From Escherichia phage T5_ev219: a stretch of DNA of 64,000 nt. The stretch lies in sequence record NC_134263.1; one strand, given 5' to 3'. Position numbers and translations under genes: made by a program. Below, piece after piece: positions 13,212-27,458 of the stretch (its first letter is position 1; each line of letters begins with the position of its first letter). The notes under the pieces are model-generated. The model did no database searches, was not told the DNA's origin, and was given only the letters and a program-made list of their open reading frames with translations.

Positions 13212-13234
13212 TTTTTATTAGTTGACCTCTGATT

Positions 13235-13260
13235 ACCGAGTCATTTTGGCTCGGTTTTCT
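13235..13260 (+). terminator. rho-independent terminator
   Basis: Hairpin accgag...ctcggt followed by TTTTCT. Confidence 0.5.
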
Positions 13261-13302
13261 CTATGCTCAAAGACACTGATAGCACCATCCGGAAAATTTT
13301 AC

Positions 13303-13331
13303 TTGCAGGATGCCCAAAATCTTGATATAAT
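13303..13331 (+). promoter_or_regulatory. sigma70-type promoter (TTGCAG-17-TATAAT)
   Basis: Hexamers at 13303-13308 and 13326-13331; about 500 nt upstream of next ORF. Confidence 0.5.
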
Positions 13332-13828
13332 ATTTATATTGAATTGAGAGACATTAGTAAAAATTGATTTTGCTAATTTTTCTTGTTTACAATCCGCGAT
13401 ACGGAACAGTTAGGCTGCCCCATTAAGGGTTGTTTTAACTATTACTAGTGTTTATATTGCATTAGTTAATCTTCAATTAAGTGATCTGTGTACCCTGAAT
13501 TCGGAAAGGTAAATCCAAACCGTGCATATTTAGCTCGTTATATAGGCAGAGTTTTATATGGGGGTGCGAACGAAAAGAGCAGCGAATGGCGGCACGTACA
13601 GTAGTCACCTACCAATAGGATAGTGAGGACAAATAGAATCGGCTTAGCGGCCAATGACCTAGGTTCTATTCTGTATATGAGCGAAGAGAGCACAGCACTG
13701 AGATATGATAACTTATTCATATTGTTTGATGATAATTGATGTTTACGTAAATAGTAGTAATAGTTGTTCTATTCTTTCTGAATAGTCCTAAAGAAAAGAT
13801 TTCGATTAACCAACACAGGAGTATTGTT

Positions 13829-16618
13829 GTGTTTTCTATCCTCCAAGGTCACGCCGGATTTTCTCGTGATTTAGCAACAGGTATTTGGCGAGAAATCAAA
13901 GCGGAAGATTATACCTTTGCCAAGCGATTCTCGAAAGAGCATCCAGAAGGTAAACCAGCTTCTATGCCCTTCAAATTTGATGTAATAGAAGAGCACGACC
14001 CACAAAGCCTTGCCGAAATGTTACCCCTTATGAGACGTTTAACGTCTGACCCTCATATCGTTGCGGTACGAGGTCGATGTCTTGCACCTAAAAATAATGT
14101 GCGACGTAAGAAAGGTAACTTTAATGTATCTAATCCTAGTAATATTATTGCTATGGACGTGGATGGTATCCTAGATACCGGTGGGTATGACAAATTTAAT
14201 CTTGTTGGTATGGCCCGCCACATTATTAAGATGTTGAATAGTATTAGTGAGGACATGTTCCCTCTTGATGCAGGCTTTATAGCTCATGCATCGTCTTCGG
14301 CTGGGCTTAAACCAGGTATCCGAATGCACTTAATGCTAGAATCTAACGTCAAGGTAACTCAGGGTCAGCTAAAGTTCTTATTTACATCTATCAACGATAG
14401 TAGTAAGCAAAAATTTGGTTTTGATATTGCCGACCTAGCTTATTATTCATCTGTCCAGCTCCACTATTTTGCCGACCCCTTATTTAGCGATGGTATTGTT
14501 GATCCGTTTAAAGCGGAGAGTAAGCCACGTCTGGTGTATGTTAAAGGTTCGAAAGTAAATTTGCCCAATAATCTAGTTGACTATGAAACAACTAGAGGGG
14601 AGTTTAAGGAAGAGTTTTATTCTTTACTTGATCAAATTAAAGGCAAAAAGATTGCTTCTGATAAAGTAGAAGAAACCATCAGCGAGTTAGAAGAGGCTGA
14701 TGATGGAGTGTATTTGCGTATTATCCCCAAACTATACCATAGAGCATTAGAGGATGGTGTTGATTTTGCATGGCTAGAACGTGAGATTAAACCAGCTTTA
14801 TCCGAATATATTGCAACTAAAGATAACAGTCGTAATATTCAAGATTACTTTAATAACGGTCGTAAGCAGGCTCTCAAAGCGTTTGTTAATAATTCTAAAC
14901 GTGAGATTCCATTAAATCTGAAAGGTGTTCCACTTAAGAAATTAGAAGTGGATTCTCCACCAGAAGTTCCATACCTGAAGATTAACATTGTGCCCCCAAA
15001 AGGCCATATAACATTTGTTAAGGCAAGTCTTGGTACGGGTAAAACTACGGCAGTAACTAAATGGCTGGACGCAGGTGTTCTTCCGGGCAACTTTTTAGCA
15101 GTTACAAATACTAGAGCACTGGTATCTTCAAATGCCAAGAAATTTAGTGCAGGACAATACGATAAGTCTGTAGATATGCTCAACTTTAAACGTGGGGCTA
15201 TTGATCGTATGTCCACAACTATTCACTCTTTGCATAAGTTCAAAAGTTTTATTGGTCAAATAGACACCATTTTTATTGACGAATGTGACGCTGTAATGAA
15301 TGACCTATTATTCGCCCCTGTTGTTAAACAACGTCGCGAGTGTATTCAAGTTCTACGTGACATCCTCATGACAGCTAAAACTGTAATCTTATCCGATGGT
15401 GATATTAGTGCTGAGACTATTGAAGCATATGGTTCTCTAATTGATTTTGATAAACCGGTTGCATTTTATAATCATCATCGTAAGATGCTGTCAAAAGCTC
15501 ATGCTTATGAGTTCCCTGATGAGTCCAGTATTTGGGTTGCACTTCAAACATCTCTAGAGATGGGTGAAAAATCTATTCTAGTATCTGATTGTGGCCCTGA
15601 TGAGCTGAATGAGAAGGGTATGGCACTACGTCGTAATACTGGTGCATTAGTTAAGGAAATCCATTCAAACTCCACATCTGATGTGGATATTAGACGTATT
15701 CTGGATTACACAACTAATGAGCTAATTGATCAACAAATTGATTGCTTATTATGTAGTCCATCCGTAACGAGTGGAGTTGACTTCAACTACTTCGATAACG
15801 TATTTGTTATTACGAGAACTAGTAATCAAGCGCCAAACATGCGTTTTCAAGCAATCAGGCGCGACCGTGGTGCTCAGAATATCTATTATTTTATTGATAA
15901 ATCCACTAGTGGGTTCTCCGCAGGTTCTGAACAATATAATATTGATGAAGGTTGGCTGGAGTTAGCACAGCAATTATACGCACGTCGCAGGGAGCTGGAA
16001 TCTAGGAACTATACTAGTACTTTACGTTATTACTTGCTTGATCAAGGTGCAACTATTGATATTTTCAGCGAAAGCTGGGGAACTATTGAAGGTGCTGGTA
16101 AAGAGTACACAGAAGAGCGAATCAAAGCTATTCTACATTCAACTCCTGATTATTGTGCCCCACGTCATGCGGATGCGTATGAAGCTAAGCTACTTCTTGT
16201 TCGCTATTATCATCTTGAGTCTATTAAAGATGTAACAGTTGAGCATGTTGAACAATATATCAAAGATAAGCCAAATGATCGAGCTGCATTCTTCCATAAG
16301 ATGCACGAGATGTTCTGGGAGGATATTAAGAAGTGTTCAAATGTGACCATTAAACCATTCATAGAGGCTCTGAAAGGTAAGAAAAAGGACTTCTTCCTTA
16401 AAACAGGCCAGAGTGCGAACCCAAAATATGCAAGAATGTACCTCGGTATGATGGGTATTGGTAAGGATATGAACACTGAAAATATCGTAGACTGGTATAG
16501 AACCTATTGTAAAATCGAGTGTATGCCAATTCCTTATAAGTTTATGACTGATGAGGAGAAACATATGCATGATGAAGCAATGTCAGAACTAGGTGCTAGA
16601 AATGACAGTGAAGAATAA
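13829..16618 (+). CDS. replication-initiator-type helicase (origin-binding-protein-like SF2 ATPase with primase-like N-terminal domain)
   Basis: GTG start with AGGAG RBS; Walker A GTGKT, Walker B IFIDECD; N-terminal IAMDVDG acidic motif; 929 aa. Confidence 0.65.
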   Translation: MFSILQGHAGFSRDLATGIWREIKAEDYTFAKRFSKEHPEGKPASMPFKFDVIEEHDPQSLAEMLPLMRRLTSDPHIVAVRGRCLAPKNNVRRKKGNFNVSNPSNIIAMDVDGILDTGGYDKFNLVGMARHIIKMLNSISEDMFPLDAGFIAHASSSAGLKPGIRMHLMLESNVKVTQGQLKFLFTSINDSSKQKFGFDIADLAYYSSVQLHYFADPLFSDGIVDPFKAESKPRLVYVKGSKVNLPNNLVDYETTRGEFKEEFYSLLDQIKGKKIASDKVEETISELEEADDGVYLRIIPKLYHRALEDGVDFAWLEREIKPALSEYIATKDNSRNIQDYFNNGRKQALKAFVNNSKREIPLNLKGVPLKKLEVDSPPEVPYLKINIVPPKGHITFVKASLGTGKTTAVTKWLDAGVLPGNFLAVTNTRALVSSNAKKFSAGQYDKSVDMLNFKRGAIDRMSTTIHSLHKFKSFIGQIDTIFIDECDAVMNDLLFAPVVKQRRECIQVLRDILMTAKTVILSDGDISAETIEAYGSLIDFDKPVAFYNHHRKMLSKAHAYEFPDESSIWVALQTSLEMGEKSILVSDCGPDELNEKGMALRRNTGALVKEIHSNSTSDVDIRRILDYTTNELIDQQIDCLLCSPSVTSGVDFNYFDNVFVITRTSNQAPNMRFQAIRRDRGAQNIYYFIDKSTSGFSAGSEQYNIDEGWLELAQQLYARRRELESRNYTSTLRYYLLDQGATIDIFSESWGTIEGAGKEYTEERIKAILHSTPDYCAPRHADAYEAKLLLVRYYHLESIKDVTVEHVEQYIKDKPNDRAAFFHKMHEMFWEDIKKCSNVTIKPFIEALKGKKKDFFLKTGQSANPKYARMYLGMMGIGKDMNTENIVDWYRTYCKIECMPIPYKFMTDEEKHMHDEAMSELGARNDSEE

Positions 16619-16835
16619 AAAATGGGAAACAAGGAAGTTTCCAGTAAAAGAACGTAAAGTTCCTGTTTATGATACTTCGGAAAAGCTATGTAGGGTGGTT
16701 CCGCACAGATTAGCTGGCATCCCTAACATATCCGAGTGGTTACTTAAACAACGGAGGACTAACGTATCTCTTCGCATAGGGTTTGAGTTAGATAAAGTAT
16801 ATGCTGAACTTTCTTCTTTGCTCAAGGAATCGTAA
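16602..16835 (+). CDS. hypothetical protein
   Basis: ORF track 16593-16835 (GTG); ATG at 16602 more likely; weak RBS. Confidence 0.35.
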   Translation: MTVKNKKWETRKFPVKERKVPVYDTSEKLCRVVPHRLAGIPNISEWLLKQRRTNVSLRIGFELDKVYAELSSLLKES

Positions 16836-16903: not shown

Positions 16904-17608
16904 ATGGCTGGTTCTCGCAGAAAGAAACATATCCATGAAATCCCTGATGAAGTCTTTAAAAAAGTTATAGAGCATCTGGAGAACGGTGGTACTAAGAAAG
17001 CAGCATGTGAGATGCTCGGCGTATCATCCAATCCGACTATGGAAAGGATGATAGAAGAGTGGCAAGATCGCCAAATTCAGGTTGCCGAGATGAAGAAAAA
17101 GAAACGTGGTACACTCATTGAAGGTATTGAGTTGGCCAACGTTATTGAACAGTATCTATCTGGTGATTCTTTTGAAGAGATTGCCGATCGTAACTACCGC
17201 TCTGTAGCAATGGTTAAATCTGTTCTAGAACGATATGGTGCTCTACTTCGTTTGAACGATATTGTAGACCCCTTGAATCCTCCAATTATTCCTGACGATG
17301 CTGTAGCAGAAGAATTTGAGGTTGGAGAACTTGTTTGGGTTCCTGGATACCAGTGTATCGGTGAAATCAAAAAAGCAATGGATAACCCTGTTGGTTGTTA
17401 TCGAGTCTGGTTACTATCGGAAGGCAAACAACAGAACGTTCATTATATGAATTACGAGCTGGCTTCTGTTAAACATCTGGAAAAGTTAGGGGTTGACGTA
17501 AAATCTCTGGGGTACAAGTGGACTCGTGAAGAAGTTATTACGTTGATTAACGAAGCTGTTAAGGCTGCCTTGAAACTTGATAAAGAAAAAGGAAAACGCC
17601 GTGAGTAG
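16904..17608 (+). CDS. putative DNA-binding protein with two HTH motifs
   Basis: N-terminal HTH (GGTKKAACEMLGVSSNPTMERMI) and second HTH-like segment; GAGGAG RBS. Confidence 0.55.
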   Translation: MAGSRRKKHIHEIPDEVFKKVIEHLENGGTKKAACEMLGVSSNPTMERMIEEWQDRQIQVAEMKKKKRGTLIEGIELANVIEQYLSGDSFEEIADRNYRSVAMVKSVLERYGALLRLNDIVDPLNPPIIPDDAVAEEFEVGELVWVPGYQCIGEIKKAMDNPVGCYRVWLLSEGKQQNVHYMNYELASVKHLEKLGVDVKSLGYKWTREEVITLINEAVKAALKLDKEKGKRRE

Positions 17609-19145: not shown

Positions 19146-20117
19146 ATGACTAATGTAAAAGAATTTATTAAACGCTGTCAAGAAGCATATTATCAGGGTA
19201 TGTCTTTAATCTCTGATGAGGAGTATGATTGCCTGGTAAAACGCTTCCCGTTAGAAGAAGAGATCGGGCCTAGGGGTGATATTCCACATCTGTATCGTAT
19301 GTATTCTTTACAGAAAGTTTACTATAACCGTGGAGATAAATCACCATTCAATCCTTTAGGTCAGGTGGAAACCGATAAGTTAGATGGTTGTGCAATTTCT
19401 CTGCTATATATTAATGGCGAATTTGTTCAAGCATTAACCCGTGGTAATGGTATTCTGGGGAATGATGTCACAAGCAACGTAAGATTGCTGAACATTCCTA
19501 AAAAGATTTCCCAAAAAGTACCTACTCAAATCACTGGTGAAGTTCTAATTACAAAAGAAGTAGAAAATAAACGTAACTTTGCCTCTGGTGCTATTAACCT
19601 CAAAGATAGTGATGCTTTCGTACAACGTATTGGAGAAGGTGGTTTAATCTTCGTTGCATACGGTATCCAGTGTTCTGCTGAATCTGTAGGTATTACAGAA
19701 GCATATTTAAAAGATATGCTTTGGCTGGAGAATGAGAACTTCTTAACAGTTGTTAATGTGCGTTCCTTCTTTAAATGGATTCCGACGGACGGTAAAGTTG
19801 TTCGTATTAATGACAACAACAAATTCTTCCGTGAAGGCTGGACTAATAAATTCCCTCGTGGAGCATTCGCCATTAAAGAGGATGAAGAAGGCGAGATTAC
19901 AACTCTTACTAAAGTTGAATGGCAGGTAGGGGCTTCTGGTAAAGTAACTCCAGTCGGTTATTTTGAACCAGTAATTATTGATGATGCTACAATTGTTAAA
20001 GCGACTCTTAATAACGTTGATTATATTAACTCTCTTGATCTAGAGATCGGTTGCCAGATTCGAGTGATTCGTGCTGGTGGTGTAATCCCGTGCATAGTAG
20101 AGCGAGTATACGATTAA
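19146..20117 (+). CDS. ligA: NAD-dependent DNA ligase, N-terminal subunit (adenylation + OB domains)
   Basis: KxDG adenylation motif (ETDKLDGCAIS); 323 aa. Confidence 0.8.
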   Translation: MTNVKEFIKRCQEAYYQGMSLISDEEYDCLVKRFPLEEEIGPRGDIPHLYRMYSLQKVYYNRGDKSPFNPLGQVETDKLDGCAISLLYINGEFVQALTRGNGILGNDVTSNVRLLNIPKKISQKVPTQITGEVLITKEVENKRNFASGAINLKDSDAFVQRIGEGGLIFVAYGIQCSAESVGITEAYLKDMLWLENENFLTVVNVRSFFKWIPTDGKVVRINDNNKFFREGWTNKFPRGAFAIKEDEEGEITTLTKVEWQVGASGKVTPVGYFEPVIIDDATIVKATLNNVDYINSLDLEIGCQIRVIRAGGVIPCIVERVYD

Positions 20118-20289: not shown

Positions 20290-20319
20290 ATTTATATAAA
20301 TTGATAAGGAAGAAATTTG

Positions 20320-21099
20320 ATGAAAATCGAAATTCCAACACAATGTCCCTCTTGTGGTTCTAAGCTAGATCTTGTCAACGGACAATTATTCTGTCGTAAT
20401 AAGTCCAACTGTCCAGCGCAATCAAGTAAGTTAATTGAGAACTTCTGTTCAAAAATGAAGTTAAAGGGTTTTGGCCCAAAAACTATTGAGAAGCTGGAGC
20501 TGACGAAGATTTCAGAACTATTTTACCTAACCGAAGAAGATTTGGTTAGAGCCGTGGGTAGCAAGGTTGCCGCTAAGTTAATTAGCGAATTAAATACTAA
20601 AGTTCGCGGAGACATTGACTTTGGTTCAGTTCTCGGTTCTTTAGGAATCCCTCTAATCGGAGAGGTTGCAGCAAAGAAATTATCCCAAAATTGCACTAGC
20701 TTCCACGATGTGAAGGCTGACGGCAAGGCTGGAGAAAACTATAAAGCCTGGCTAAATTCCCCACAGGGCAAGGATGTTATCGAATTACCGTGGAAATTCA
20801 CAACTGGTATTAAAGGTGCTAAAGCTGAGGTCATCATCACTGATGGTCTAGTAGCCCAACCAAACGGAATAACGGTATGTATTACCGGATCTTTGCAAGA
20901 TTTTGCAAATAGAACGGATGCAACAAACTATTTAGAAGGTCTAGGATATACGGTTAAGAAATCCGTTACCAAAGACGTCAAATACCTAATCTGTGAGGAT
21001 GAATCTAAGCGTTCTTCCTCATCTTATAAGAAAGCCGAAACGAATGGGATAGAAATCCTGTCGATTAAAGAACTATTGGAGAAAAATAATAATGTCTAA
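20320..21099 (+). CDS. ligB: NAD-dependent DNA ligase, C-terminal subunit (Zn-finger, HhH, BRCT-like)
   Basis: Four-Cys zinc finger CPSCG...CRNKSNC; ORF track TTG 20317 adjusted to ATG 20320 with AAGGAAG RBS. Confidence 0.8.
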   Translation: MKIEIPTQCPSCGSKLDLVNGQLFCRNKSNCPAQSSKLIENFCSKMKLKGFGPKTIEKLELTKISELFYLTEEDLVRAVGSKVAAKLISELNTKVRGDIDFGSVLGSLGIPLIGEVAAKKLSQNCTSFHDVKADGKAGENYKAWLNSPQGKDVIELPWKFTTGIKGAKAEVIITDGLVAQPNGITVCITGSLQDFANRTDATNYLEGLGYTVKKSVTKDVKYLICEDESKRSSSSYKKAETNGIEILSIKELLEKNNNV

Positions 21100-21876: not shown

Positions 21877-21909
21877 AAGGGGAGGGGGCTATGCTCCTTC
21901 CCCTTTTTG
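21877..21909 (+). terminator. rho-independent terminator
   Basis: ggggagg...ccttcccc hairpin followed by TTTTT. Confidence 0.6.
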
Positions 21910-21941
21910 CATTTAGAAGGCACGAAAGCGTGCAAAGGAGA

Positions 21942-23414
21942 ATGACCTTGTTTAACGTGCAAGCTGTAGTGTTGAAGATGCTTCTAGCTTCAGAACAGAA
22001 GCAAATAGCATTGGAAACATTCTCAAAACTGCATAAAGATCATTTTAATGACGCTTTCTCCTCAATTTACCAAGCCGTCCAGAATTATTATAAAAAATAT
22101 AACACAATGCCGTCCATTGACGCACTGATGCTTGAGGCTAATAGGAACGCCCGCCTTTCTCAAGCTCTAGTCGTTTTAGCTAACACTCAAATTCCAGAAG
22201 TTAGCATGGAACAGGCACTTGAAGTCCTAGAGGCCGAGTATACACAGGATTTATTCCTGAAGCTTCTAGAAACAGACGTGCTTCAAGATTTAACAATGCT
22301 GGATCAGGGAGAAATTCTTAACCGAGTTGCCTCCCTTCACTTAAAATTAGAAGAGAAAGTAACGAATACTGGAAAAGTATTCAACGCAGATAACATGCGT
22401 ATTTTCCAGAGAGAAGAAGATACCAAACTGAACTTAATCGCTCTTGGTATTTGTAATGAGTTCGACGCTCAAATTGGTTTAGCTCGCACAGAAACGTTAC
22501 TGCTTGGTGGTTGGCGTGGTACTGGTAAATCCATTATCTGTTCAAACATACAGGTTCAGCAATATTTGAATGGAGATATTGCTCCATACTTCTCAATTGA
22601 GATGAAAGAACATGAAGTATTTAGACGTAATCTAGCCATGTTAGCTGGTGTATCAGCACTAGCAATGCGTAATAATACTCTAGAAGGTGCAGCTCTGTTG
22701 AGATTAGCCAGAACTAGAGCTAGGATGTTTAACGGTGGTGAAGAGCTTTTCGATAACTTCGTTAAACAGTACACAATGGCTAAGATGAGTGATTTCTACG
22801 ATATGGAAAGTAAGCTAATAGAAGGGTATGAACTACATACTCCTATGATTATTGTTTATGATCCTGAGCTGTCTATTACAACAGTTGACGTAGAATTAAA
22901 TAAATTAGTTGCTAGATATGGTGATAAAGTTACAGTAGCTTTACTTGACTATATTAACCAAACCCGACTTCCAGATTCTAAAACCATTGATATGTATGAC
23001 TGGAAAGAACAGATGGTTGTTAGCTCGTCTTTCAAATCTATCTGCCAGAAACATAACGTGGCTGGTGTAGCTCCTTACCAGATTGATCAAGATGGTAGAA
23101 CACGTATGTCAAAGGGGATTCTTGATTCCGCAGACATGGCTGCTAATCTTAATGCTGCAAAAGCTGATAATGGTCAAGGTGCTATTATGTTTGACTTCGT
23201 TAAGACTCGTTCTTCTGATAGTGTGAAGTTTATGCCTAAAATGAACTGGGAAACCCTACGGATGGATAACACTACCAACCTAGCAATGGAAGATATATCT
23301 CAAATGGAAGCTGAGTTCGTTATCCCTATTGAGAAGGATAAGCCGGCTCAATCTAAACGTGCTAAGAAAGACAAAGCTGAAAATTCAACAGGTGAACAGG
23401 CCAGCGATATATGA
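21942..23414 (+). CDS. DnaB-like replicative helicase
   Basis: Walker A GGWRGTGKS, RecA-like core; ORF track start 21891 lies inside the terminator hairpin, so ATG 21942 with AAGGAG RBS preferred. Confidence 0.7.
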   Translation: MTLFNVQAVVLKMLLASEQKQIALETFSKLHKDHFNDAFSSIYQAVQNYYKKYNTMPSIDALMLEANRNARLSQALVVLANTQIPEVSMEQALEVLEAEYTQDLFLKLLETDVLQDLTMLDQGEILNRVASLHLKLEEKVTNTGKVFNADNMRIFQREEDTKLNLIALGICNEFDAQIGLARTETLLLGGWRGTGKSIICSNIQVQQYLNGDIAPYFSIEMKEHEVFRRNLAMLAGVSALAMRNNTLEGAALLRLARTRARMFNGGEELFDNFVKQYTMAKMSDFYDMESKLIEGYELHTPMIIVYDPELSITTVDVELNKLVARYGDKVTVALLDYINQTRLPDSKTIDMYDWKEQMVVSSSFKSICQKHNVAGVAPYQIDQDGRTRMSKGILDSADMAANLNAAKADNGQGAIMFDFVKTRSSDSVKFMPKMNWETLRMDNTTNLAMEDISQMEAEFVIPIEKDKPAQSKRAKKDKAENSTGEQASDI

Positions 23415-23941
23415 TAACACAGGAACGACTAAAAGAACTGTTTGACTACTCCCCAGAGACTGGGGAGTTTACTAGAAAAGTATCTAGAGGCAATCAGAAA
23501 GCTGGTAGTATTGCGGGTACTCTAGATAGTGGATACATACGGATAAAGGTAGATAGAAAATTATACTTTGCACACCAACTAGCCTTCCTATATATGGAAG
23601 GATATATGCCAGAGGAAGTAGACCATATTAATCGAATTACTTGGGATAATAGATGGATTAATATTAGGCCATCCACCCGGCAAGAAAATAGCAGAAATAA
23701 AACAGCTAGAAGTAAATCTGGATACTTGGGAGTTTTCTGGTTTAAGCGGGATCACAAATGGCATGTAAGAGTAGTAAATTCTATGGGAGAAAAAGTTCAC
23801 GGTGGGCTCTTTAATTACGCAGATCTAAAGCTTGCAGTCACTAAAGCCAATGAACTACGTCTACAATTACATGGAGAAAATGCTGTTCAAGAGATCTTTG
23901 ATCCAACTAAGTATCCTTCACTGGAGGAGTTAAATTCATGA
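23411..23941 (+). CDS. HNH homing endonuclease (paralog of 810-1358)
   Basis: Colinear similarity with 810-1358 protein (FT.KVSRG...AH.LAFLYM...DH.NRI..DNRWINIR); sits between helicase and primase. Confidence 0.7.
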   Translation: MITQERLKELFDYSPETGEFTRKVSRGNQKAGSIAGTLDSGYIRIKVDRKLYFAHQLAFLYMEGYMPEEVDHINRITWDNRWINIRPSTRQENSRNKTARSKSGYLGVFWFKRDHKWHVRVVNSMGEKVHGGLFNYADLKLAVTKANELRLQLHGENAVQEIFDPTKYPSLEELNS

Positions 23942-24828
23942 GTAGAATAACAGAATTACTTGATCTTAAGGGAATTGAGTATAAAGATACTGGTGGAGAT
24001 ATTTTAATCTGTTGCTTAAATCCAGATCATGACGATAAACACCCAAGTTTGCGTATTGACCCTGAAACAGGTATTATGCACTGCTTGAGTTGTGGCTTCG
24101 GTAAAGGTATACCGAGCATTTACCATTATTTTAATGAGACTCAGTACCGACAGTCCCCAAGGCTATCGCAAGTACGTAAAAAGATTTCAGAGATTAGGAA
24201 TGGATCAACGAATCTTGCAATTCCTGAATCTGCTTGCCTTTTCGAAGGTGATTTCCGAGGTATAAGTTCTAAGACCTTGAAGAAATATTTTGCTTTCCAA
24301 CACCAAGCAGACTGGGAAGGCAGAATTGTATTCCCAATCACAGATGCTGTTGGACGCAATATCCTATTTTTGGGTCGTTCTATAAACAGTTCTGCCCCTC
24401 CTAAATACTTAGTAAAACCAAAACAAGTTTCACCGCCAATTTTTCCTGTACGATATAATACTCCAGTTCTTATTCTAGTTGAAGGCATCTTTGATATGCT
24501 GAACCTAGAGGATAATGGTATAGACTATACTTCTTGCTGCTTTGGTACACACCAGTTTACTTCGGATAACATTGCAGATAAGTTCAGTCCTTATATTATT
24601 GCCGGTGTAAAAGTTGTTGTTATCTTACTAGATAATGATGCTTCTGGTAATAAAGCTGCCCAGGCGCTAGCAAAATTAATTAGTACAAAAACGCGTTTAA
24701 CACCTGTAGTTGCTAACTTTCTTCTGCCTGAAGGTAAAGACCCTGGTGACTTAAATAAAGAAGAGATTGATATGTTAGCAAAACGTATTGAAATTTTAGT
24801 TGCTGAATCGCTTAAAGATTTGGTATAA
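23938..24828 (+). CDS. DNA primase (DnaG-like, Zn-finger + TOPRIM)
   Basis: Zn finger CLNPDHDDKHP...CLSCG; TOPRIM-like LVEG...DNDASG. Confidence 0.75.
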   Translation: MSRITELLDLKGIEYKDTGGDILICCLNPDHDDKHPSLRIDPETGIMHCLSCGFGKGIPSIYHYFNETQYRQSPRLSQVRKKISEIRNGSTNLAIPESACLFEGDFRGISSKTLKKYFAFQHQADWEGRIVFPITDAVGRNILFLGRSINSSAPPKYLVKPKQVSPPIFPVRYNTPVLILVEGIFDMLNLEDNGIDYTSCCFGTHQFTSDNIADKFSPYIIAGVKVVVILLDNDASGNKAAQALAKLISTKTRLTPVVANFLLPEGKDPGDLNKEEIDMLAKRIEILVAESLKDLV

Positions 24829-24890: not shown

Positions 24891-27458
24891 TTGAAAATCG
24901 CAGTAGTTGATAAAGCTCTAAATAACACTCGTTATGATAAACATTTCCAGCTATACGGCGAGGAAGTTGATGTATTCCATATGTGTAACGAGAAGTTATC
25001 CGGTCGTTTGCTCAAAAAGCATATTACTATCGGGACTCCGGAAAACCCATTTGACCCGAATGATTATGATTTTGTTATACTGGTAGGTGCCGAACCTTTT
25101 CTGTACTTCGCAGGTAAGAAAGGCATTGGTGACTATACTGGTAAACGCGTAGAGCATAATGGATATGCTAACTGGATTGCTAGTATCAGCCCAGCCCAGT
25201 TACACTTTAAGCCTGAAATGAAACCAGTTTTTGATGCAACAGTAGAGAGTATCCACGATATTATCAATGGTCGTGAGAAGGTTGCAAAAGCTGGTGATTA
25301 CCGTCCTATTACTGACCCTGACGAGGCGGAAGAATATATCAAGATGGTGTATAATATGGTTATCGGACCTGTCGCATTTGACTCCGAAACCTCAGCACTA
25401 TACTGTCGAGATGGTTATCTGCTTGGTGTTTCTATGTCTCACCAAGAGTATCAGGGTGTATATATCGATTCTGATTGTCTCACAGAAGTTGCAGTATATT
25501 ATCTCCAGAAAATTCTGGATAGTGAAAACCACACTATTGTTTTTCACAACTTGAAGTTTGATATGCACTTTTATAAGTACCATCTGGGACTTACTTTTGA
25601 TAAAGCACATAAAGAACGCAGGCTCCATGATACCATGTTGCAGCACTATGTTCTAGATGAACGTCGTGGTACTCATGGCTTGAAATCTCTAGCAATGAAG
25701 TATACCGATATGGGTGACTATGACTTCGAACTAGATAAGTTCAAAGATGATTACTGCAAAGCACATAAAATCAAGAAAGAAGATTTCACCTATGATTTAA
25801 TTCCGTTTGATATTATGTGGCCTTACGCTGCGAAAGATACAGATGCTACCATACGTTTACACAACTTCTTCTTACCAAAAATTGAGAAGAATGAAAAACT
25901 TTGTAGTCTGTACTATGATGTTTTGATGCCTGGTTGCGTATTCTTGCAACGTGTTGAGGATCGTGGAGTACCTATCTCTATTGATCGTTTGAAAGAAGCT
26001 CAGTATCAGTTAACTCATAACCTGAATAAAGCCCGTGAGAAACTGTATACTTATCCAGAAGTTAAACAGCTAGAACAAGATCAGAATGAAGCATTTAACC
26101 CGAACTCTGTTAAACAACTTCGTGTTCTTCTGTTCGATTATGTTGGTTTGACTCCAACTGGTAAGTTAACGGATACTGGTGCAGATTCTACAAACGCAGA
26201 AGCTCTGAATGAACTGGCTACGCAGCATCCAATTGCTAAAACTCTGCTAGAGATTCGTAAGCTGACTAAGCTAATCTCTACTTATGTTGAGAAGATTCTT
26301 CTGAGTATTGATGCGGATGGTTGCATTCGTACTGGTTTTCATGAACATATGACTACTTCTGGTCGTCTGAGTTCTTCTGGTAAACTGAACCTGCAACAGT
26401 TACCTCGTGATGAATCTATCATTAAGGGTTGTGTAGTTGCACCACCTGGATACCGTGTAATCGCATGGGACTTAACAACTGCGGAAGTTTATTATGCTGC
26501 TGTTCTATCTGGTGATAGAAATATGCAACAAGTATTTATCAACATGAGAAATGAACCTGATAAATACCCTGACTTCCACTCTAACATCGCCCACATGGTA
26601 TTTAAATTGCAATGTGAACCTCGTGATGTTAAGAAGCTGTTCCCAGCTCTACGTCAGGCAGCTAAGGCAATTACCTTTGGTATTTTGTATGGTTCTGGCC
26701 CGGCTAAAGTAGCACATTCTGTTAACGAAGCATTGCTCGAACAAGCATCCAAAACTGGTGAACCGTTTGTTGAATGTACTGTTGCAGATGCTAAAGAGTA
26801 CATTGAGACTTACTTTAGTCAATTCCCACAGCTTAAGCGTTGGATTGATAAGTGCCACGATCAGATCAAGAATCATGGATTTATCTATAGTCACTTTGGT
26901 CGCAAACGTCGTCTACATAATATCCACTCCGAGGACCGTGGCGTTCAGGGTGAAGAAATTCGTTCTGGATTTAACGCAATCATTCAGTCTGCTTCTTCTG
27001 ATAGTCTCCTTTTAGGTGCTGTAGATGCAGATAATGAGATCATTTCTCTTGGCCTAGAACAAGAGATGAAGATTGTTATGCTGGTTCATGACTCCGTAGT
27101 TGCTATTGTTCGTGAGGATTTGATCGACCAATACAATGAAATTCTGATTCGTAATATTCAGAAAGACCGTGGTATCAGTATTCCTGGCTGTCCAATTGGT
27201 ATTGATTCAGATTCTGAAGCTGGAGGTTCTCGTGACTATTCTTGTGGTAAGATGAAGAAACAGCACCCATCAATCGCTTGTATTGATGATGACGAATATA
27301 CTCGTTACGTTAAAGAAATGCTACTTGACGCAGAGTTCGAGTATAAGAAACTAGCTGCAATGGATAAAGAGCATCCAGATCATAGCAAATACAAGGATGA
27401 TAAGTTTATTGCTGTATGCAAAGATCTGGATAACGTGAAAAGGATTCTCGGTGCTTAA
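24891..27458 (+). CDS. DNA polymerase, family A with 3'-5' exonuclease domain
   Basis: 855 aa; exo motif FDSET; pol motifs RQAAKAITFGILYG and VHDS; TTG start with AAGAGGAG RBS. Confidence 0.95.
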   Translation: MKIAVVDKALNNTRYDKHFQLYGEEVDVFHMCNEKLSGRLLKKHITIGTPENPFDPNDYDFVILVGAEPFLYFAGKKGIGDYTGKRVEHNGYANWIASISPAQLHFKPEMKPVFDATVESIHDIINGREKVAKAGDYRPITDPDEAEEYIKMVYNMVIGPVAFDSETSALYCRDGYLLGVSMSHQEYQGVYIDSDCLTEVAVYYLQKILDSENHTIVFHNLKFDMHFYKYHLGLTFDKAHKERRLHDTMLQHYVLDERRGTHGLKSLAMKYTDMGDYDFELDKFKDDYCKAHKIKKEDFTYDLIPFDIMWPYAAKDTDATIRLHNFFLPKIEKNEKLCSLYYDVLMPGCVFLQRVEDRGVPISIDRLKEAQYQLTHNLNKAREKLYTYPEVKQLEQDQNEAFNPNSVKQLRVLLFDYVGLTPTGKLTDTGADSTNAEALNELATQHPIAKTLLEIRKLTKLISTYVEKILLSIDADGCIRTGFHEHMTTSGRLSSSGKLNLQQLPRDESIIKGCVVAPPGYRVIAWDLTTAEVYYAAVLSGDRNMQQVFINMRNEPDKYPDFHSNIAHMVFKLQCEPRDVKKLFPALRQAAKAITFGILYGSGPAKVAHSVNEALLEQASKTGEPFVECTVADAKEYIETYFSQFPQLKRWIDKCHDQIKNHGFIYSHFGRKRRLHNIHSEDRGVQGEEIRSGFNAIIQSASSDSLLLGAVDADNEIISLGLEQEMKIVMLVHDSVVAIVREDLIDQYNEILIRNIQKDRGISIPGCPIGIDSDSEAGGSRDYSCGKMKKQHPSIACIDDDEYTRYVKEMLLDAEFEYKKLAAMDKEHPDHSKYKDDKFIAVCKDLDNVKRILGA

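Follow-up and report, generated by a model that had tools for sequence, protein, structure and literature searches.

Phage T5 is a classic model phage, yet it lacks a defined replication origin and a defined initiator mechanism. The genome of the T5-like Escherichia phage T5_ev219 (Tequintavirus; NC_134263.1), of which a stretch of 64,000 nucleotides (nt), hereafter the window, was analyzed, raises the question of what a 929-residue protein with a primase-polymerase-like N-terminus and a central ATPase does beside a DnaB-like helicase and a DnaG-type primase. A sequence-only reading of the window had proposed that this protein is a second primase-helicase-type initiator and that the two systems divide the labor. 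Sequence comparison identifies the gene as that of the phage T5 replication helicase D2 (also annotated obp), which has already been studied. Its N-terminus, which had not been described before, most likely folds as an archaeo-eukaryotic primase (AEP), and primases of two unrelated kinds are thus probably present in T5-like phages.

The open reading frame (ORF) taken for a gene in the sequence-only reading is real: its GTG start lies 7 nt downstream of a Shine-Dalgarno AGGAG and is identical in the annotation of the T5 and BF23 records. A longer frame is excluded because an in-frame stop (13748-13750) occurs 78 nt upstream of the GTG. The protein is identical to T5 obp (AAX12037) at 917 of 926 residues (99%), and PHROG 3712 ("replication origin binding") aligns with it from end to end (1-926 of 927, 1829 bits). 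Of the 447 phage records matched by the 2790-bp gene, those of Escherichia phages EC122/EC105 are 97.5% identical to it in nucleotide sequence and that of BF23 is 97.2% identical. The gene order of the window is that of BF23 and T5, and full-length similarity together with neighbors shared with both phages places the protein in the T5 D2/obp orthologous group. In the T5 st0 record the gene is named D2 (T5p106, AAU05245). The T5 protein (AAU05245/AAX12037) shares start, length and genomic position with its ortholog in the window, and differs from it only in the last ~25 residues.

T5 D2 is the "unusual bipolar helicase" of Wong, Sayers and Sanders (2013; PMC3632103). Its ATPase activity is stimulated by single-stranded DNA and abolished by the K405E substitution; unwinding is robust in the 3'-5' direction and weaker in the 5'-3' direction, and both require the same catalytic residues (PMC3632103). 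D2 was put forward as a replication initiator in that study, which also cites older genetics in which D2 amber mutants showed no net DNA synthesis (PMC3632103). Because the window protein is an ortholog with the near identity given above, the published ATPase, helicase and DNA-negative amber phenotype apply to it. The literature therefore already covers the gene, its activity as a helicase and the idea of an initiator. What is new is the assignment, drawn from a structural model, of the D2 N-terminus to the AEPs as a family that lies outside Pfam and NCBIfam. The 2013 domain map predicts a coiled coil and a helix-turn-helix (HTH) within the linker and places motif VI at residues 668-682, but leaves residues 1-270 blank (PMC3632103), where the present analysis gives an AEP-like fold. 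The literature searched contains no paper that assigns an AEP or primase domain to T5 D2, and the assignment seems to be unreported.

The fold was approached with an AlphaFold model of residues 26-265, built from a 35-sequence alignment (pLDDT 94.3, pTM 0.90); a model of the full 929 residues built without an alignment had a pLDDT of 36 and was unusable. In the domain model, motifs I, II and IV lie on beta strands within a beta-alpha-beta-beta-alpha arrangement, and the core resembling an RNA recognition motif (RRM) with its flange, as expected of the AEP catalytic fold, is present. A Foldseek search of the PDB with the model returned AEPs at almost all of ranks 1-33 (best E 6e-3, probability up to 0.98). 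PrimPol, poxvirus D5/E5, herpes UL52, LigD PolDom and also C962R were among the matches of the structure searches. Against BFVD there were 27 matches at E<=1e-3 besides T5-like orthologs, many of them labelled PriCT-2, VapE, DUF927, NrS-1-type or primase/helicase. Structure prediction, which had been named as a check in the sequence-only reading, points to an AEP fold.

The catalytic motifs of AEPs are defined as hhhDhD/E (I, metal ligands), sxH (II, nucleotide binding), hD/E (III, third metal ligand) and Rh (IV) (PMC5862659), and counterparts of all four were found in D2. Conservation was assessed across 73 homologous segments of the N-terminal domain. Motif I corresponds to IIAMDVD (residues 106-112), in which all of the homologs keep D110 and 99% keep D112. 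In motif II, SSSAG (residues 155-159) is followed by RMH167; H167 is invariant in 29 full-length homologs, with the qualification that an arginine, not a small residue, stands two positions before it. Motif III is IAD202, whose aspartate is 100% conserved, and motif IV is R234-L. The four motifs occur in the canonical order, are 93-100% conserved and fall on the expected secondary-structure elements. The most conserved positions of the domain are K32, R81, R93, D110, D112, S155-S157, G159, H167, D202, Q210, Y213, P217, D225-P226 and R234. The strings IAMDVDG, GTGKT and IFIDECD, which were the starting point of the sequence-only reading, each occur once in D2 and their key residues are 99-100% conserved or invariant, indicating they are not chance strings.

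The proteins in which the domain occurs also point to a primase. A HMMER search of 1.84 billion cluster representatives recovered 85 relatives of the N-terminal domain. The closer ones are 900-1050 residues long and have all the parts of D2, whereas distant relatives, at E 1e-9 to 1e-3, align with residues ~30-255 only. Among 48 distant relatives scanned, the domain is fused to VapE (10), DUF5906/D5-like (10), PriCT_2 (5) and AAA_25/RepA-like (2) domains, and D5_N/Pox_D5 is also found among the partners. PriCT-2, VapE, D5-like and RepA-like domains are classic AEP partners (PMC5862659). Several distant relatives match PHROG 16950 "DNA primase" through the N-terminal domain. A word-indexed homolog search with the N-terminal 389 residues gave two fragments only, and with the domain profile gave only short stand-alone proteins that lack Pfam domains.

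The likeness to AEPs could be accidental and reflect only a generic alpha/beta (RRM-like) fold, the N-terminus being an unrelated domain, and RRM proteins do align with the model. Their alignments cover 82-97 residues, however, compared with 122-155 for AEP matches. Two independent structure-comparison methods and the viral structure library all placed AEPs or primase-helicases at the top, the four motifs stand in canonical order, and the fusion partners are classic AEP ones (PMC5862659). A chance resemblance is thus very improbable. The primase-polymerase-like character ascribed to the N-terminus in the sequence-only reading is borne out by the modeled fold, the conserved catalytic motifs and the partner domains of its relatives.

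Several observations weigh against an active primase in D2 and against its proposed role as an initiator. No Pfam or NCBIfam model matches residues 1-389, and a scan of 35 homologous N-terminal domains singly against both collections gave nothing significant (AEP-TOTE once, E 0.27). A domain search for AEPs, another of the suggested checks, gave no significant match to a curated model. The family profile of the domain, compared with PDB sequences, found no AEP and only a non-significant GGDEF (E 0.3). No zinc finger, recognizable PriCT or helix-bundle helper was identified in residues 251-388. No primase or polymerase assay of D2, or of any member of the N-domain family, was found in the literature searched. 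No convincing iterons or other repeats were found in the 617-bp region upstream of D2, and no convincing iterons in Vibrio phage Brizo. Finally, a complete DnaG-type primase is encoded in the window, which leaves no obvious need for an AEP primase.

The domain might also be derived from AEPs but not be a primase, serving instead as a DNA-binding, origin-recognition or protein-docking module while the DnaG-type primase does all of the priming. Inactivated AEP domains would generally be expected to lose these catalytic residues. In the D2 family, conservation of 93-100%, down to ~22% identity and across fusion contexts, is seen for the aspartates of the metal site, for the histidine of motif II and for the arginine of motif IV. 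Because such conservation is typical of active enzymes, the non-catalytic alternative is disfavored and appears unlikely. From its fold, motifs and comparative architecture, the N-terminal domain is inferred to be a metal-dependent AEP-type nucleotidyl transferase.

Genes for stand-alone AEP-like domains (344-390 residues, no Pfam match) also occur in proteobacterial integrative islands (L004 6001-9110, L005 6001-9221, L006 6001-9221 and L007 1584-4771). Their order is a tyrosine integrase, small ORFs (AlpA once), the AEP-like gene and a translationally coupled gene for a protein of ~685 residues, which has a Walker A motif at its start and is without a match in Pfam, NCBIfam or PHROG. The two coupled proteins are a candidate primase-helicase pair. 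The possibility that the ~685-residue P-loop proteins are split-off D2 helicases was rejected: hhalign aligned the Walker A region only (probability 3.5%). A further 18 stand-alone loci were found in Pseudomonadota and other metagenome-assembled genomes (L010-L027).

The motor of D2 belongs, on the evidence of its sequence, to the superfamily 2 (SF2) replication-initiator helicases of the UL9/CyRepA1/N15-RepA type. The sole Pfam match in the protein is Herpes_ori_bp (PF02399; residues 389-533), which scores 30.5 bits against a cutoff of 20 and spans only positions 46-197 of the 820 in the profile. The match thus exceeds the gathering threshold, and helicase motifs I, II, V and VI are invariant. 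The only significant PDB sequence matches are structures of herpes simplex virus (HSV) UL9, covering residues ~392-555 (E 5e-5 with the single sequence, E 1e-7 with a 29-sequence family profile). The strongest family match of the core is the NCBIfam model CyRepA1 (NF042913; E 6e-35, residues 392-708). Its score of 121.2 bits lies below the equivalog cutoff of 200 and covers only profile positions 2-317 of 595, so that D2 is, by sequence, a relative of the CyRepA1 plasmid proteins and not a member. A tblastn search with the core found 64 plasmid matches, most of them labelled CyRepA1-family replication proteins; among the plasmids are ones from Nostoc, Legionella and Pseudomonas, the last with a gene for a telomere resolvase beside rep. 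CyRepA proteins are plasmid Rep proteins defined by experiment (PMC10079941). Across 29 full-length homologs, with identities down to 22%, G402, G404, K405, T406, D484 and E485 are invariant. ATP-dependent unwinding, as expected of a UL9-like SF2 helicase, is documented for the 99%-identical T5 protein (PMC3632103).

Other identities were considered for the ATPase. The sequence-only reading had left the choice between SF2 and SF3 families open; the replication-initiator helicase stands, as an SF2 motor of the UL9/CyRepA1 type, and the SF3 option falls, as the D5_N, Pox_D5, VapE and DUF5906 domains are not in D2. A packaging or repair enzyme was likewise rejected. All family matches are to UL9/CyRepA1-type replication helicases, and for this reason the SF3, packaging and repair readings do not hold. 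The combination that would have spoken against the original proposal, an N-terminus unlike primases joined to a packaging or repair ATPase, is not what was found.

Taken as a whole, D2 is probably, though by no means certainly, a single-polypeptide initiator: an AEP-type primase (or primase-polymerase), a helical linker, a UL9-like SF2 helicase and a conserved C-terminal domain, which would prime the first strand after unwinding. D2 would be produced early in infection and would bind phage DNA via its non-motor regions. The SF2 motor would open the duplex by ATP hydrolysis, an unwinding activity that has been shown for the 99%-identical T5 protein, as have binding of single-stranded DNA and an essential part in DNA synthesis. 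The N-terminal domain, to judge from its fold, motifs and comparative architecture, would make the first primer on the exposed strand, and the family A polymerase would extend it. The DnaB-like helicase and the DnaG-type primase would then drive the fork and prime Okazaki fragments. The fullest form of the proposal, in which replication of T5-like phages is started by a self-contained initiator whose active AEP lays the first primers once the UL9-like motor of the same protein has opened the DNA, with DnaG and DnaB serving the fork only, is tentative and somewhat doubtful. The division of labor between two priming systems is an inference from this arrangement.

Alternatively, D2 may be a PrimPol-like enzyme of fork restart or repriming rather than an origin initiator. 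It would then recognize DNA structures such as forks that have stalled or collapsed, which might happen at the single-strand interruptions naturally present in T5 DNA, unwind with either polarity and reprime, while normal initiation took another route, such as a recombination- or transcription-dependent one. This is improbable. D2 amber mutants are reported to lack any net DNA synthesis, which suits a role in initiation or in the core replisome better than a back-up function, and the nearest relatives of the helicase are plasmid replication initiators.

An initiator that primes would operate in the presence of a second replication set. A separate DnaB-like helicase and a DnaG-type primase stand beside D2 in the window, as the sequence-only reading had it, and they do so in a distant member of the Demerecviridae too. 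The DnaB-like gene is real, as its Pfam DnaB_C match shows, but its start had been placed at 21942, whereas the ORF and the T5 annotation begin at 21891. The gene read as a DnaG-like primase at 23938-24828 encodes a CHC2 zinc ribbon, DNAG_N and Toprim, all above or near the cutoffs. A tblastn search with the D2 N-terminal domain matched 904 phage records, each with at least 80% query coverage and with identities down to 25%; these are essentially Demerecviridae and include phages of Salmonella, Escherichia, Klebsiella, Vibrio, Proteus and Aeromonas. In Vibrio phage Brizo, which belongs to a different subfamily, the N-terminal domain is 33% identical and the D2 architecture is kept, and obp, a DnaB-like helicase, a DNA primase and a polymerase are encoded in the same order as in the window. 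Because the arrangement is retained in the distant Brizo, the coexistence of an AEP-helicase with DnaB/DnaG is ancestral to the family rather than peculiar to one genome.

The remaining parts of D2 are less readily classified. Residues 276-348 of the linker (window 14654-14872) show a weak match to GapR/UPF0335 DNA-binding proteins (E 0.02-0.05). This match overlaps the predicted coiled coil and HTH, and coiled-coil composition alone may explain it. Residues 711-929 gave no significant family or PDB match, the nearest being an ArsR-type winged HTH at E 0.34, and no match to a UL9-homologous C-terminal origin-binding domain, since the family profile aligns to UL9 over residues 392-555 only. The name "origin binding protein" rests solely on the UL9 similarity, and sequence-specific origin binding by D2 is, by analogy with UL9, putative.

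The region upstream of D2 contains a terminator-like hairpin (13235-13255) and a promoter-like site (13364-13393), followed by a leader of ~440-500 nt; a terminator and an early promoter are annotated 5' of D2 in the T5 and BF23 records. In composition, the one notable feature is a patch of 25% GC at 13700-13799, and an 18-nt inverted repeat (13437-13454/13748-13765) flanks a GC-richer core. The region is conserved at 92-100% in many Tequintaviruses, and Vibrio phage Brizo has a comparable gap of 712 bp 5' of obp (L003 13205-13916). The region upstream of D2 may act in cis in replication, or it may be a regulatory leader. Rfam had no match anywhere in the window, and the RNA fold of the region is not unusual (z = -1.7). 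No origin is claimed because convincing iterons, an Rfam match and an unusual RNA fold were all lacking upstream of D2. The coordinates of the locus and of the neighboring replication genes are given in Table 1.

Table 1. Features of D2 and of the associated replication genes in the window.
Feature	Position	Strand	Details
Non-coding region 5' of D2	13212..13828	+	617 bp; no ORF >60 residues; terminator, promoter, long leader
Shine-Dalgarno AGGAG	13817..13821	+	7 nt 5' of D2 GTG; read from sequence
D2/obp gene	13829..16618 (stop codon included)	+	929 residues, GTG start; AEP-like domain and SF2 helicase; from ORF list
N-terminal AEP (primase-polymerase)-like domain	13904..14578	+	residues ~26-250
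AEP motif I IAMDVDG	14147..14167	+	residues 107-113 (D110, D112); beta strand, model strand 79-89 = residues 104-114
AEP motif II region SSSAG...IRMH167LML	14291..14338	+	S155 95%, G159 96%, H167 93% conserved
AEP motif III FDIAD202L	14420..14437	+	D202 100% conserved
AEP motif IV-like KPR234LVYV	14522..14542	+	Arg then hydrophobic strand; R234 95% conserved; model strand 210-213 = residues 235-238
Alpha-helical linker	14579..14992	+	residues ~251-388; coiled coil and HTH predicted (PMC3632103); A306, Y340, R358 conserved
UL9-like/CyRepA1-like SF2 helicase core	14993..15958	+	residues ~389-710; Pfam, PDB, NCBIfam and tblastn matches
Walker A GTGKT	15032..15046	+	residues 402-406 (K405); invariant; single occurrence in D2
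Walker B IFIDECD	15269..15289	+	residues 481-487; F482, D484, E485 invariant; single occurrence
Motif VI/arginine-finger region RFQAIRRDRG	15842..15871	+	R672, Q674, A675, R678, R680 invariant
Conserved C-terminal domain	15959..16615	+	residues ~711-929; slot of UL9 DNA-binding domain; R720, E724 invariant
DnaB-like (SF4) helicase	21891..23414	+	separate fork helicase; Pfam DnaB_C E 7.6e-9; dnaB in T5 annotation
DnaG-type primase	23938..24828	+	second, unrelated primase; Pfam Zn_ribbon_DnaG (CHC2), DNAG_N, Toprim_2/3/4
Family A DNA polymerase with 3'-5' exonuclease	24891..27458	+	DNA_pol_A E 9e-67, DNA_pol_A_exo1 E 1e-39

The 3' end of D2 is the sole divergent part of the gene relative to T5 (window 16540-16835), with 9 mismatches in the last 26 residues. 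An HNH endonuclease gene lies directly 3' of D2 in T5 and is absent from the window; an ORF of 80 residues (16593-16835) overlaps the D2 stop in the window and likewise in BF23. The 3' end looks like a mosaic boundary linked to the gain or loss of a homing endonuclease. A second such element, an HNH_3 homing-endonuclease ORF of 176 residues (23411-23941), lies between the DnaB-like and DnaG-type genes and overlaps both. It is present in T5 st0 (T5p118) and absent from BF23, where the primase directly follows the helicase. Two adjacent ORFs, ligA-like (19146-20117) and ligB-like (20317-21099), encode a split NAD-dependent DNA ligase, which is annotated in the same way in T5 and BF23.

Annotation of the D2 locus is inconsistent between databases. 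The BF23 record OR083247 places the label "D2 helicase" on a downstream ORF of 234 residues (window 16904-17608; L001 17077-17781) and "D3 protein" on the next ORF. Both the T5 st0 record and the biochemical study of 2013 use D2 for the 929-residue protein and D3 for the 234-residue ORF. Elsewhere the 929-residue gene is labelled "DNA primase C", "repA 5'-3' and 3'-5' helicase" or "hypothetical protein". The label "replication origin binding protein" conceals a likely enzymatic domain.

If the AEP domain of D2 is active, T5 would gain a concrete and cheaply testable mechanism of initiation, and there would be a reason for two unrelated primases in one phage. The known repertoire would also grow by an AEP family that is as yet uncurated and occurs in some 900 genomes of Demerecviridae and in integrative elements of proteobacteria. 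If the domain is inactive, the finding shrinks to a well-known helicase gene.

The closest known systems share parts of the D2 architecture. HSV UL9 (PF02399; PDB 9hgj and others), a replication initiator that opens an origin, has in common with D2 an SF2 core with the Walker A/B region. The similarity is confined to about 150-165 residues of RecA-like domain 1, and UL9 lacks an N-terminal AEP domain, whereas D2 has an AEP-like one. The herpesvirus primase UL52 and human PrimPol have sequence identities of 10-12% to D2 and need a UL52-type zinc finger for priming, which is not evident in D2. If the assignment is true, a single polypeptide of a tailed phage joins a UL9-type helicase and a UL52/PrimPol-type primase, which are separate in herpesviruses.

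Fusions of an AEP with a helicase are known from plasmids and viruses. The pRN1 protein ORF904, poxvirus D5/E5, C962R of African swine fever virus and the NrS-1 primase-polymerase combine N-terminal AEP motifs I-III (and IV) with a helicase in one polypeptide, as D2 does. Most of these have SF3/D5-type or RepA-type motors, whereas the D2 motor is SF2, and the N-terminal domain of D2 matches no Pfam model of the known fusions. Because all3500-like AEPs fused to remote UL9-like SF2 helicases have already been described (Kazlauskas et al. 2018, PMC5862659), the combination of an AEP with a UL9-like helicase is of a known kind; T5 is not named in that survey or in those of its supplements that were searched.

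In layout, D2 resembles the plasmid and linear-prophage replication proteins of the CyRepA1/N15-RepA type, which also have a primase-type domain, a UL9-like helicase and a long C-terminal region. The plasmid proteins carry a Toprim-related domain (DUF3854/Toprim_3) and are 1060-1280 residues long, whereas D2 carries an AEP-like domain and has 929 residues; an N-terminal DUF3854/Toprim_3 domain was not detected in D2. One such protein is the CyRepA1-family rep of a Pseudomonas corrugata plasmid (NZ_CP102178; L030, 31232-37038), which has Toprim_3 and a UL9-like helicase in 1281 residues and adjoins a telomere resolvase gene. The pairing points to a linear plasmid-prophage of the N15 kind, with an initiator of the D2 helicase family. 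Three plasmid initiators were scanned, from Nostoc pCC7120alpha, Legionella fallonii plasmid II and the P. corrugata plasmid, and in each DUF3854 or Toprim_3 lies directly N-terminal of the UL9-like core. Since these domains stand there in all three, the slot N-terminal of the core is one for a primase throughout the family. Most simply, D2 and the plasmid proteins have a single architecture, a primase domain followed by a UL9-like helicase and a C-terminal region, within which one primase fold has been swapped for a non-homologous one. D2, if its AEP assignment is true, is the AEP-bearing counterpart of the Toprim-bearing N15-RepA/CyRepA plasmid initiators.

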